Assembly (NCBI GenBank): GCA_045537315.1
Contig: JAZSPF010000042.1
Coordinates: forward strand, 1-44,054
DNA: 44,054 nt
Source: Acutalibacteraceae bacterium
GTDB lineage: Bacteria; Bacillota; Clostridia; Oscillospirales; Acutalibacteraceae
Reading direction: 5' to 3'
The translations under genes were made by a program, and so were the position numbers. Shown here in pieces: positions 4,995 to 43,997 of the stretch. Within the stretch, counting starts at the first letter, position 1. The number at the start of each line of letters is the position of its first letter. The notes below the pieces were generated by a model, which made no database searches, had not been told where the DNA came from, and saw only the letters and a program-made list of their open reading frames with translations.

Positions 4995-5110
4995 GGGGGG
5001 CGGCTCCGCTGCCGAAGCGGTGCTTCGGCAAGCGACGCTGTCGCACAAAATCGCAAAGCGATTTTTGCGGAGCCGCCGCCCGCTTCATCACACTGACATA
5101 AATCGTCAGC
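4995..5110 (-). repeat. four-helix-junction repeat, copy A (with 5' CTGAC/GTCAG hairpin module)
   Basis: Read on the minus strand: P1 GGCGGCTCCGC/GCGGAGCCGCC, P2 AAAATCGC-TTT-GCGATTTT, P3 GCGAC-AGC-GTCGC, P4 TGCCGAAGC-ACC-GCTTCGGCA. Same architecture as the copies at 21515 and 43884. Confidence 0.85.
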
Positions 5111-8793: not shown

Positions 8794-8869
8794 GCTGGAA
8801 TAGCTCAGTTGGTAGAGCAGCGCATTCGTAATGCGCAGGTCGCGTGTTCGAGTCACGTTTCCAGCTCCA
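8794..8869 (+). tRNA. tRNA-Thr (anticodon CGT), CCA encoded
   Basis: 76 nt. Acceptor GCTGGAA/TTCCAGC, D arm GCTC-AGTTGGTA-GAGC, anticodon stem GCGCA/TGCGC with loop TTCGTAA, T arm GCGTG-TTCGAGT-CACGT, then discriminator T plus CCA. Confidence 0.93.
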
Positions 8870-8912: not shown

Positions 8913-8914
8913 GA

Positions 8915-9080
8915 ATGATATCCGTTTCTTGGGGAACGGGTGATATATCTTCGATATGATATCGCTCTGCGAGCGATGATATATGCCTGCGGCATATGAA
9001 GGAATGGATATTATATCATATTTGCAGAGCAAATATATCATACAGCTTGCTGTATATCATATCGCGTCAGCGATATATCA
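8915..9080. repeat. array of about 8 short hairpins with conserved (T)ATAT(CA) flanks and variable GC cores, period about 20 nt
   Basis: Examples: ATCGCTC-TGC-GAGCGAT, ATATGCC-TGC-GGCATAT, ATATTTGC-AGA-GCAAATAT, ATACAGC-TT-GCTGTAT, ATATCGC-GTCA-GCGATAT, CCGTT..AACGG. Units are separated by GATAT/ATATCA. Confidence 0.75.
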
Positions 9081-21514: not shown

Positions 21515-21626
21515 CTGACGATTTTGGTTAGTTTGATGAAGAGGTGGCGGCTCCACAAAAATCGCTTTGCGATTTTGGGCGACGGTGTCGCTTGCCGAAT
21601 GAAATTCGGCAGTGGAGCCGCCGCAA
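21515..21626 (+). repeat. four-helix-junction repeat, copy B
   Basis: 5' hairpin CTGAC-gattttg-GTTAG. P1 GGCGGCTCCAC/GTGGAGCCGCC (21546-56/21612-22), P2 AAAATCGC-TTT-GCGATTTT, P3 GCGAC-GGT-GTCGC, P4 TGCCGAAT-GAA-ATTCGGCA. Confidence 0.85.
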
Positions 21627-30351: not shown

Positions 30352-31695
30352 ATGCACAACAAACAAAAAAGAAGATTTATCAGAATTATCAGTTTTCTTT
30401 CGGCGGCGGTTATTCTGCTGAGCTTCAGCACCGCCATATTCGCGTCCAAGGCAAAAAAATATGAATTTGCAAACGAGATAGTCTATCAGCGTTCAATGAA
30501 CGAGCTTTGCGAAAACCTTGATAATATCAGCGTCAGCCTGCAAAAAGGCATTTATTGCGGTACCGGAGAAAAACTGCTGAGTGTAGGCAACGAGCTGACA
30601 AGACAGGCAACCGCGGCAAAAATGTGTCTGTCACAGATAACTGACGAAAACATTGTCAGCGAAGAAATCTACAAATTCCTTTCTCAGATAGGCGCCTACA
30701 CAGTTTCACTTGCCCAAGGTGAAGATAAGCTGAGTATTTCTGAGAAAGATGCAGAAAGTCTTGCGGCTTTGCTTGAATATTCTCAGAAGCTGAGCCAATC
30801 CCTCAGCGAAGTCCTTTCCTCATACAGTGACGGCAGTGTTTCCACACAGAATAAAAAAAGCACTTTATCTCTTAATGTACCCGAGATGCCCAAAAGCCTT
30901 TCATCATCCCTTAACGATGCCGAGCAAAGCCTTACAGATTATCCCACACTTATTTATGACGGACCCTTTGCCGACAGCATTCTCAATAAAAAAGGCGGTC
31001 AAAGCCTTGAGGGGCTTCGTGAAATAACAAAGGAAGAAGCAAAGAAAAAAGCCGCCGAAATTATGAATACTGCCCCCGAAAGTCTCAGACAGGAAGAGGA
31101 CAGCAACTCAAAGATACCGCTTTACTGCTTCTCTAAAGGCGATATGAGTGTGGGCATAACAAAAAAAGGCGGCAAAATCTGCTATCTGATAAATCCCGTG
31201 TCACCTCTTGAAGAAACTATCAGCACACAGGAAGCTGTAAAAAGGGCGGGACAGTTTCTTAAAAAGTATGGTTACGACAATATGAAAGAGAGCTACTATA
31301 GTGTTTATGACGGAATTTGTACCGTTAATTTTGCTTACACCAACGAAGGGATAATTCACTACAGTGACCTTATAAAAGTCAGTGTCGCGCTCGACAGTGG
31401 GGAGGTCACTGCCCTTGATGCCACATCTTATCTTGTCAACCACTGCAAAAGGGATATATACGGCACTGTGGTAACGGAAAAAGAGGCTATAGAAAAAGTT
31501 TCTCCCCTGCTTTCCGTAACAGGCACAAAATCGGCGGTTATCCCTCTTGACACGGGCAAGGAAGCCTATTGCTATGAGTTTCACTGTAAGGACAAGCAGG
31601 GTCAGGAAGTTCTGGTCTATATTGACAAGCAAACAGGCGAAGAAAGAGATATTCTGTTGCTGCTTTATGCTGACGGGGGAACGCTGACAAAATAA
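30352..31695 (+). CDS. ypeB: germination protein YpeB-like (PepSY-domain)
   Basis: 447 aa with an N-terminal TM. The length and overall pattern resemble YpeB. Assigned by eye only. Confidence 0.6.
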   Translation: MHNKQKRRFIRIISFLSAAVILLSFSTAIFASKAKKYEFANEIVYQRSMNELCENLDNISVSLQKGIYCGTGEKLLSVGNELTRQATAAKMCLSQITDENIVSEEIYKFLSQIGAYTVSLAQGEDKLSISEKDAESLAALLEYSQKLSQSLSEVLSSYSDGSVSTQNKKSTLSLNVPEMPKSLSSSLNDAEQSLTDYPTLIYDGPFADSILNKKGGQSLEGLREITKEEAKKKAAEIMNTAPESLRQEEDSNSKIPLYCFSKGDMSVGITKKGGKICYLINPVSPLEETISTQEAVKRAGQFLKKYGYDNMKESYYSVYDGICTVNFAYTNEGIIHYSDLIKVSVALDSGEVTALDATSYLVNHCKRDIYGTVVTEKEAIEKVSPLLSVTGTKSAVIPLDTGKEAYCYEFHCKDKQGQEVLVYIDKQTGEERDILLLLYADGGTLTK

Positions 31696-32021
31696 ATGCA
31701 GAATGCAGAGTGCAGAATGCAGAATTGTGGTCGCGACTTTTAAAGTGCAGAACGCAGAGCGCAGAGTGCAGAACGGTGGTCGCGGACATAGCCTACCGCG
31801 ATCAAAAGTTTTTCTCCGCGGAATGAAAACTCAGAAACGGTAAATTTCATCAATCTTAATATAAGGCAGGTCACTACCAAACTGTAGTGACCTGCTGAAC
31901 TTTTATAATTTACAGAGTCGGTATCTTATGCCAACTCTCTTTGCGGGTAAAAATGTACCTTTTAGTTAAAAGTGATCCCGCGACCACAATTCTGCATTCT
32001 GCACTCTGCACTCTGCATTCA
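31695..32021 (+). repeat. heptad-TIR element, copy E1 (about 327 bp)
   Basis: Left end has two units: (RRYGCAG)x4 + AATTGTGGTCGCGAC, then TTTTAAAG + (RRYGCAG)x4 + AACGGTGGTCGCGG. The right end (31978-32020) is the inverted complement of unit 1 with about 1 mismatch. The core holds the hairpin GCAGGTCACTAC/GTAGTGACCTGC. Confidence 0.85.
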
Positions 32022-32050
32022 AAAAGAGCCGTCTTTAAAGCGGCTCTTTT
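32021..32050 (-). terminator. rho-independent terminator for the Asn-rich peptide gene (symmetric)
   Basis: AAAAGAGCCG-tctttaaag-CGGCTCTTTT. Confidence 0.75.
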
Positions 32051-32064
32051 CAAAGAGAGAATAA

Positions 32065-32247
32065 TCAGTTGTTGATATTGTTGTTATTTTTGTTTTGCTG
32101 ATTGTTGTTACTCTTTCCCTGAGACTGAGGAGGATTGGCAGAATTCTGGGAATTTGATTTTGAGTTCTCTCTTCCGGACTGCTTGTTGTTGATATTGTTG
32201 ATGTTACTGCTGTTGTTATTATTGTTGTTGCTGCTGTTGTTGTTCAT
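32065..32247 (-). CDS. 60-aa Asn/Ser/Gln-rich hydrophilic peptide (hypothetical)
   Basis: AGGAG 9 nt upstream of the ATG and its own terminator. Nearly half the residues are Asn and there is no hydrophobic segment. Confidence 0.55.
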   Translation of the reverse strand: MNNNSSNNNNNNSSNINNINNKQSGRENSKSNSQNSANPPQSQGKSNNNQQNKNNNNINN

Positions 32248-41173: not shown

Positions 41174-41348
41174 TTCCAATACCTCCTAAGACCTCATTTT
41201 TACAAGGTCCCTAATTATTTTAAAACCTCAAAGTTTTCTCCTTTTGAAGTTAACATTAGTTATTTTATCATAAATTAGACAAAAAAACAACGGATTATTG
41301 ACTAATTTTATGCATTATTTTTTGGTCAGTGTGTATAAAAACCTAAAT

Positions 41349-41760
41349 AAATGCAAAATGCAGAGTGTAGAATGCGGAATTGTGGTCGTTACTTTTAAAG
41401 TGCAGAACGCAGAACGCAGAGTGCAGAACGGTGGTCGCGTGTAAAGCTCTGCTTAAGGATAATTCTTACCAGCAAAGGAAATTGGTATCAGATACCGACT
41501 CCCAAGATTATAATCCTTATCCGTCACTGCGTGACACCTTCCCTTGTGTTAAGGGGAAGGCGTAAATAAAGCAAGTCACTACCGATTTGGAAGTGACTTG
41601 CCATCGTTTATTAAGATTGATGAGTTTTGCCGCCTTTGAGCTTCATCTACGCGGAGGGAGACTCAAGGTTAGTCAGTGGTGAAGTCGCGACCACCGTTCT
41701 GCACTCTGCGCTCTGCGTTCTGCACTTTAAAAGTCGCGACCGCAATTTAGCATTTTTAAA
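41349..41760 (-). repeat. heptad-TIR element, copy E2 (about 410 bp, core inverted relative to E1)
   Basis: Two heptad units on the left (41349-41441). On the right, an inverted unit 2 plus a truncated unit 1 (41684-41760). The core aligns to the reverse complement of the E1 core and carries an extra ~60 nt (41510-41570). Confidence 0.85.
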
Positions 41761-43883: not shown

Positions 43884-43997
43884 TTTGTCGTCAGTGTGTG
43901 CGGGGCGGCTCCACAAAAATCGCTTTGCGATTTTGGGCGACCTTCGGTCGCTTGCCTGACGCAGTCAGGCAGTGGAGCCGCCCACCGCTATCTGACG
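43884..43997 (+). repeat. four-helix-junction repeat, copy C
   Basis: P1 GGCGGCTCCAC/GTGGAGCCGCC (43904-14/43972-82), P2 AAAATCGC-TTT-GCGATTTT, P3 GCGACC-TTC-GGTCGC, P4 TGCCTGAC-GCA-GTCAGGCA. Outer pairing CGTCAG (43889-94) / CTGACG (43992-97). Confidence 0.85.

Follow-up and report, generated by a model that had tools for sequence, protein, structure and literature searches.

What is the 327-bp element that lies directly 3′ of ypeB in a contig of an Acutalibacteraceae bacterium, and how might it have come to be there? We analysed 44,054 nucleotides of this contig (JAZSPF010000042.1, assembly GCA_045537315.1), hereafter the window. The element, which we call E1, occupies positions 31695-32021 and carries period-7 arrays and GTGGTCGCG boxes at both ends. 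An initial annotation had offered two readings, a non-autonomous mobile element or a small-RNA gene embedded in a long stem. Our results indicate that E1 is most probably a present or former mobile element, with the gene for its enzyme at another site. On balance, it is probably a copy of a non-autonomous, foldback-type mobile repeat of gut Clostridia, resembling MITEs (miniature inverted-repeat transposable elements) and REPINs (doublets of repetitive extragenic palindromes, REPs), that has no gene of its own and would be moved in trans.

Pfam domains and homologue names identify the upstream neighbour of E1 as ypeB. Tandem Repeats Finder detected three arrays of period 7 (31695-31725, AATGCAG, 4.4 copies; 31747-31772; 31989-32020), confirming the heptad-built inverted ends that the initial annotation had described after this gene. 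The two 41-nt arms, 31695-31735 and 31979-32019, are complementary at 40 of 41 positions (98%), as expected from its statement that the far end is the reverse complement of the first unit with about one mismatch. The arrays stood up to scrutiny and their bounds had to be adjusted: the first A belongs to the ypeB stop codon TAA (31693-31695, plus strand), whose last base is also the first base of the first heptad and forms the T-R-A terminus of the element, and the right end extends as TCA (32019-32021, minus strand; TGA when read inward), the inverted counterpart of the left-end TAA. The GTGGTCGCG box occurs five times in the window against 0.09 expected, each time inside E1 or inside a second copy, E2, that is described below.

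On the plus strand, the left (B-side) arm begins with the outer heptad array AATGCAG AATGCAG AGTGCAG AATGCAG (31695-31722) and continues into the box AATTGTGGTCGCGAC (31723-31737), in which GGTCGCG is invariant. A linker, TTTTAAAG, and a second unit (TGCAGAA CGCAGAG CGCAGAG TGCAGAA followed by CGGTGGTCGCGG) occupy 31738-31785. This extra unit is found on the left arm only; each arm of E2 shares it, and the positional counterparts at two related loci, L118 and L121, lack it. The B-module (31786-31864, plus strand) contains a CCGCGGA box, a hairpin formed by ATGAAA and TTTCAT (31823-31850), and AATCTTAATA; matching the A-module profile at E 3.5e-8, it is an inverted paralogue of that module that has diverged. 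A central GC-rich hairpin, GGCAGGTCACTAC..GTAGTGACCTGC (31865-31896), separates it from the A-module interior (31902-31978, minus strand), the best-conserved part of the family, with an ATTATAA box (approximately 31903-31910), a CCGCAAAG box (31939-31946, minus strand) and variable spacers. The right (A-side) arm (31979-32019, minus strand) consists of CGCGACCACAATT and the four heptads CTGCATT CTGCACT CTGCACT CTGCATT. Abutting this end, and outside E1, is a bidirectional terminator hairpin of the host (32022-32052) that has one bulge and is conserved in L118.

The core was confirmed to lack a substantial open reading frame (ORF), as only ORFs of 46-47 amino acids overlap it (46-61 amino acids for E1 and E2 together). 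The central hairpin forms 12-13 pairs and is terminator-like by score whichever strand is read; the stem of the hairpin with a U-rich tract that had been noted was thus confirmed, but its T tail (GAACTTTTAT) is weak. The ATGAAA/TTTCAT hairpin is retained in related copies, partly through G-U pairs, in line with its earlier description as conserved. E1 as a whole folds equally well on both strands (−149.8 and −149.9 kcal/mol; z of −15 and −13).

The second copy, E2 (41350-41757, plus strand, about 410 bp), has two units per arm, forming an 86-nt inverted repeat at 84%. Its outer units are degenerate (41350-41392 and 41735-41757) and flank inner units at 41399-41439 and 41686-41726; the core (41440-41685) is homologous to that of E1 in the opposite orientation. 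The right end of E2 abuts the stop codon (41756-41758) of a gene for a 172-amino acid protein. Beside E2, the leader of an EF-G-like gene (41180-41337) is identical to that in L121 at 157 of 158 positions, while the neighbouring genes are only 64-80% identical at third codon positions; with its two hairpins and no match in Rfam, it is a candidate regulatory leader.

Membership of E1 in a larger family and the number of its copies could be observed directly. An exact scan with the 18-mer TGCAGAAYNGTGGTCGCG over one genome per species returned at least 112 stretches, most of which were chance matches in GC-rich genomes. Real copies were contained in at least 21 stretches from at least 11 metagenome-assembled genomes (MAGs) classified as ‘Acutalibacteraceae’ or ‘Clostridia bacterium’, largely from ruminant hindgut, including at least five contigs of JAZPYL and at least three each of JAFQLV and JAZUOC. 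When loci found by way of neighbouring proteins are counted as well, at least 15 species-level Acutalibacteraceae/Clostridia gut genomes carry the family, with several copies in each, and it therefore extends beyond the two copies in the window. A profile of the best-conserved part detected 28 strong A-modules in the collected sequences. Neither a plasmid collection nor a phage collection contained a match to the family; a 20-mer found nothing in viral contigs, where a 17-mer gave two chance matches in a phage coding region, and a metagenome scan returned two short contigs only. In Rfam, the window and 13 related loci gave no match to the family at gathering score, and E1 and E2 gave nothing meaningful at E≤10. 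The initial annotation, which could name no repeat family with such ends, was borne out by these searches of annotated repeat and RNA families, and in the full-text literature we found no description of a heptad-armed family, which is apparently undescribed so far.

The family members are non-coding, about 150-450 bp long and modular. Each end consists of 2-6 heptads (mode 4) anchored on AAT, followed by a GC-rich box (GGTCGCG in E1). The commonest inner part is the A-module, which reads heptads-AAYNGTGGTCGCGG, about 40 nt, CCGCA(A/G)AG, about 38 nt, and (A/G)ATTATAA, with no conservation of the spacers between boxes. The far end carries B boxes (E1 and E2), C boxes (GGGCGGGAAAGGCTTC...) or D/E boxes (GGGTCGCTTTGCTCCGATTATATCCG), and an identical heptad array can lead into A, B, C or D/E boxes. 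E1-type copies share the central GC-rich hairpin, with compensatory changes between copies. Tandem duplication of the unit was seen in the left arm of E1, in both arms of E2, and in L001, L008 and L033. An alignment of 27 A-modules showed no shared secondary structure (−1.4 kcal/mol), so that what is conserved is primary sequence at fixed spacing, as for protein-binding DNA and not as for RNA. The arrays and boxes would be the binding sites of a recombinase or transposase encoded elsewhere in the genome. Within otherwise homologous cores, GC-rich mini-hairpins (CCTTCCCCTT..AAGGGGAAGG, GGCACCTGACGGTGCC, CTCCCCTTTCAGGGGAG) are present in some copies and absent from others, as further small insertions; they were seen in E2 (41520-41570), in the cores of L036, L090, L117, L120 and L121, and in L001 (6700-6990), and in L090 they split a heptad array.

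The junctions of these elements have a characteristic anatomy. Across 58 arrays the flank is T-rich, with T at position −2 in 39 and A or G at position −1 in 50, so that complete elements read TRA-heptads...heptads-TYA. The flanking trinucleotides (TRA/TYA) are therefore inverted and not direct, and about half of the ends start TG...CA (TGAATGCAG...CTGCATTCA). Among 17 arrays beside an inward-reading ORF of at least 90 codons, 10 have the stop codon ending exactly at position +1 of the array, and 6-7 of these sites are independent. The elements at L015, L028, L120 and L126 fill the entire gap between two convergent stop codons. A terminator hairpin with its T-tract lies immediately upstream of 11 of 61 arrays, compared to 19 of 5000 random positions (0.4%). 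No consistent direct repeat indicative of a target-site duplication was detected at 18 complete copies. These junctions suggest that integration would add no target duplication and would set the T-R-A termini precisely next to a stop codon or to the last base of a T-tract behind a terminator, leaving the genes intact.

The ypeB stop codon provides filled and empty versions of the same site. The window carries an A/B-type element there, as do L117, L118 and L120, which are strains of one other species. L126 contains a different member, with AATTATG heptads, C-type boxes and an unrelated GC-rich repeat as cargo. In L115, L116 and L127 the site is empty and the stop codon is followed by a terminator. 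It is also empty in L129-L137, nine assemblies that belong to a single species and share the synteny of L126, in which the ypeB stop codon and the convergent adh_short stop codon are 2 nt apart (TGAGCTTA). In total, the site is occupied in three species groups and empty in four, a polymorphism between species only. This varied occupancy marks the site as a preferred landing place and the insertion as exact relative to the reading frames. Two further features were noted at the adh_short side: the convergent ypeB/adh_short junction of L129-L137 has no terminator, and the C-terminus of adh_short is variable after VDGG (LV, FNI or YLGN), being shortest where an element abuts. Synteny downstream of the ypeB site differs in almost every genome. 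The 3′ end of one gene is followed by the element in L090 and again in L120, where the core has opposite orientations and the far flanks differ; copies evidently take part in rearrangements. Serving as substrates for recombination, they could produce both the flipped cores and the broken synteny. Downstream of E1, a 60-amino acid ORF (32065-32247, minus strand) encodes mostly Asn, Ser and Gln (MNNNSSNNNNNN...); its position and part of its sequence are conserved in L118, and it belongs to no Pfam family.

The arms and the cores of these elements have evolved differently. The heptad is AATGCAG in the window, AATGCAA in the species of L117, AATTAGC in L121 (the positional counterpart of E2) and AATTATG in L126, and AACTCCT and CAATGCA-type arrays were also found beside GGTCGCG boxes. 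Within each element, both arms have a matching heptad variant and unit number. Period, unit number (about 4) and arm complementarity are kept while the heptad sequence itself differs between species. Pairing holds in 92.9% of the arm and hairpin cells of eight E1-type copies, and two-sided changes were observed in 16 cells (reached in 0 of 500 shuffles) and 9 pairs (3 of 500). E1 and E2 are 94-96% identical in their arms and 66% in their cores. Given this difference, the shared inner unit and the paired changes, the arms are either kept alike by homogenisation, inside a copy as well as among copies, or held to pairing by selection, and the cores drift. Exchange within and between elements after insertion could keep the arms complementary.

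As to age, E1 is 66-70% identical to the family, more than the 54% of ypeB third codon positions when the window is compared with L118, which points to a measure of constraint, to conversion or to a younger age. The 99% identity of the flank of E2 to that of L121, set against 70% for the core, could be taken for turnover at this site; we dropped this idea because, by the yardstick of third codon positions (64-80%), the flank is unusually conserved and the core is not unusually diverged.

An autonomous partner was sought among the neighbours of the elements. No full-length insertion sequence (IS) sharing the ends of the elements was found in about 30 loci, which are fragments of host genomes, and an all-against-all comparison of ORFs from 25 loci detected no recurrent ORF beside the elements that could be such a partner; the neighbours that do recur are an MFS transporter, a PBP and an ABC transporter. 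In L045 the contig (JAZSAM010000038) breaks off within an element, just after a possible ATG start. The single IS seen in these loci, at L117 (11540-11681; its ORF starts MKSYTHFTLSER), was considered as the autonomous form and rejected. It lies inside the ypeB element of one strain, where the contig ends; as L118 and L120 have this element uninterrupted, the IS is a secondary insertion. The start of its ORF is reminiscent of IS30-family N-termini.

Several observations weigh against a mobile, trans-acted repeat. None of the copies in the roughly 30 host-genome loci has a linked transposase or recombinase gene. No filled and empty pair was found within a species, and all three strains of the L117 species that were examined carry the element. 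No cores in the set have diverged further than those of E1 and E2 (66-76%), and these two may be old relics; in addition, the 70% identity between the cores of E2 and L121 is near the third-codon-position identity of the neighbouring genes, which makes long residence plausible, rather than recent movement. Finally, the distance from box to tip changes with the number of heptads, which is awkward for an enzyme measuring from a fixed site. The non-autonomous mobile element proposed in the initial annotation is supported by the multi-copy family, by the filled and empty ypeB site and by the lack of a matching annotated repeat or RNA family; no autonomous partner was found in the loci examined, nor a target duplication or within-species polymorphism. 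We infer the enzyme acting in trans, the chemistry of integration and any present activity of the family from these patterns. A hairpin- or structure-dependent, non-duplicative mechanism, of the kind represented by REPINs and their RAYT (REP-associated tyrosine transposase), IS200-type elements or site-specific recombinases, would be favoured over cut-and-paste transposition by a DDE enzyme, given the lack of duplication, the inverted flanks, the variable box-to-tip distance and the co-varying arms.

The alternative that survives best, although we consider it unlikely, is that E1 is an ordinary MITE of a DDE transposase, that is, an internal-deletion derivative of an IS with shared inverted repeats whose target duplications are too short, or too AT-rich (T-runs), to recognise. 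The small size, the long inverted repeats, the multiple copies and the AT/T-rich flanks would all fit, as would the TG...CA ends of about half of the termini, and at some junctions (E1, L118 and L121) a run of 4-5 T could be read on both sides. However, the 18 complete copies have no consistent direct repeats and their flanking triplets are inverted, no IS with matching ends was found in the loci examined, and a variable number of heptads between box and tip, in arms that change jointly, is unexpected for the end of a sequence-specific transposase.

Two further explanations appear somewhat less probable still. E1 could be a prokaryotic mobile element of a new kind that integrates exactly and without duplication at stop codons or terminator ends, and whose arms a hairpin-templated (single-strand or fold-back) process would regenerate or homogenise. 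Such renewal of the arms would explain why period, unit number and complementarity stay constant despite the replacement of the heptad between species. If this were true, the enzyme would read structure and periodicity rather than sequence. Alternatively, and with a similarly small likelihood, E1 might be an element useful to the host in cis, whose stem in the 3′ untranslated region and central hairpin would terminate transcription, insulate convergent genes from each other or stabilise mRNA. Roles of this sort have been proposed for REPs, bacterial interspersed mosaic elements (BIMEs) and Correia elements. Its location between a stop codon and a terminator, or exactly between two convergent stop codons where the empty site lacks a terminator, would suit this function, as would the terminator-like central hairpin kept by compensatory changes and the identity of E1 to its family above that of ypeB third codon positions. 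In addition, family-invariant columns are retained at 85-87% in positional counterparts compared to 45-58% in other columns (p≤1e-5), a difference that is biased by shared ancestry and carries little weight. In contrast, a good host terminator already follows E1, E2 scores no terminator, short family members have no central hairpin, and both strands fold equally, with G-U-only pairs in both orientations. A terminator or insulator role between convergent genes would in any case be compatible with a mobile repeat.

The small-RNA gene of the initial annotation, which would have its own promoter and end at the central hairpin within the long stem, is very improbable. Its fold is very stable (z of about −15), orientation A gives more predicted pairs (81 compared to 61), its energy being lower in 13 of 18 copies, and the minus strand of E1 has a weak promoter-like match. 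That stability, however, derives from the inverted arms and is equal on either strand; orientation A folds only slightly better, and G-U-only pairs occur in both orientations. The 27 A-modules have no conserved structure, the promoter-like match is not conserved in E2, and no relative is found in Rfam even at E≤10. A coding role for the heptads, as small peptides (MQNAECR repeats) whose translation would be coupled to that of the upstream gene at TAA-ATG or TGA-ATG, is rejected as next to impossible. T(A/G)A-ATG is indeed seen at most ends, and every AATGCAG unit brings another ATG; however, the number of heptads (2-6) shifts the frame through the conserved box, the peptides differ wholly between copies, the variants AATTAGC and AACTCCT contain no ATG, and no ribosome-binding site was seen.

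How, then, does a foldback-type repeat of this design compare with known systems? REPINs and BIMEs of enterobacteria and Pseudomonas are inverted REP doublets mobilised by RAYT, an HUH Y1 transposase. Like E1, they are non-coding and extragenic, mostly located at the 3′ ends of genes, with inverted halves that form a long hairpin, no target duplication, pairing kept between the halves and mosaic modules; the REPIN enzyme is a single-copy gene elsewhere in the genome, as may also be the case here. REP units differ in being 20-40-nt, GC-rich imperfect palindromes with a conserved 5′ tetranucleotide, GTAG, whereas each arm here combines a 7-nt array with a module of about 100 nt in an element of 150-450 bp. 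E1 thus has the inverted extragenic doublet without duplication and lacks the REP unit itself, and no RAYT or other transposase was present among the flanking ORFs examined in these host-genome fragments. Correia elements of Neisseria, RUP and bcr1 are likewise small, non-coding, intergenic MITEs with terminal inverted repeats and many copies; terminators can be part of them, and long stems form in their transcripts. They differ in having fixed short inverted repeats, a defined target duplication (e.g. TA) and usually a recognisable parent IS, none of which was found here. By the usual description of bacterial MITEs, the family agrees in being non-coding and shorter than about 600 bp, with terminal inverted repeats, dispersed copies and filled and empty sites, and departs in its lack of a target duplication.

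BOX elements of Streptococcus pneumoniae are modular (boxA-boxB(n)-boxC), with variable tandem subunits and pairing ends, and no transposase is known for them. Their tandem subunit is 45 nt and internal, whereas the unit here is 7 nt, terminal and inverted on both arms. The eukaryotic Foldback (FB) transposons have long inverted repeats built of short tandem subrepeats in variable number, with arms kept alike, and it is this foldback architecture that the family displays with its period of 7 and 2-6 units (mode 4). FB transposons are eukaryotic, with 9-bp target duplications and kilobase arms, and the analogy is one of architecture with no homology implied. Palindrome-associated transposable elements (PATEs), derived from IS200/IS605, have no terminal inverted repeats and different subterminal hairpins at each end, with the left end abutting a fixed tetra- or pentanucleotide; in contrast, the arms here are long and inverted, and both ends symmetrically abut T-R-A. 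A precedent for one protein dimer per heptad is the omega repressor of pSM19035, a ribbon-helix-helix protein that binds contiguous 7-bp WATCACW repeats, 2-10 per site, direct or inverted. The omega heptads differ in sequence and serve as promoter and centromere sites of a plasmid and not as the ends of dispersed repeats, and no such protein is linked to the elements described here.

Other features of the window were also recorded. A second repeat family of about 110 nt occurs at 5001-5082 (minus strand), 21543-21625 (plus strand) and 43903-43985 (plus strand), as well as in L123 (4610-4690) and inside the element of L126 (3955-4050). It has a closing stem (GGCGGCTCC/GGAGCCGCC) and three inner hairpins, with stems kept and loops differing, and no Rfam match; it looks like a structured RNA or a REP-like unit. 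A tRNA (8794-8866) is followed 47 nt on by a Gut-1 RNA (8913-8987; RF01706, 55 bits). At positions 146-1534, a 545-bp unit occurs three times in tandem; in the comparison, which covered 300 nt, the copies are 75-88% identical, and they are apparently paralogous small genes.

If our interpretation of E1 is correct, uncultured gut Clostridia contain foldback repeats with concerted short-period ends that land precisely and harmlessly at the ends of genes and mark breakpoints of synteny. Such repeats would help to explain genome rearrangement in this clade, and they matter for annotation in that they break MAG assemblies, since contigs end in them. The exactness of the junctions at stop codons, at independent sites, raises the question of how targets are chosen. 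The heptads and the GGTCGCG box provide a sequence handle for finding the enzyme that would move the family, which may be non-duplicative and structure-reading.

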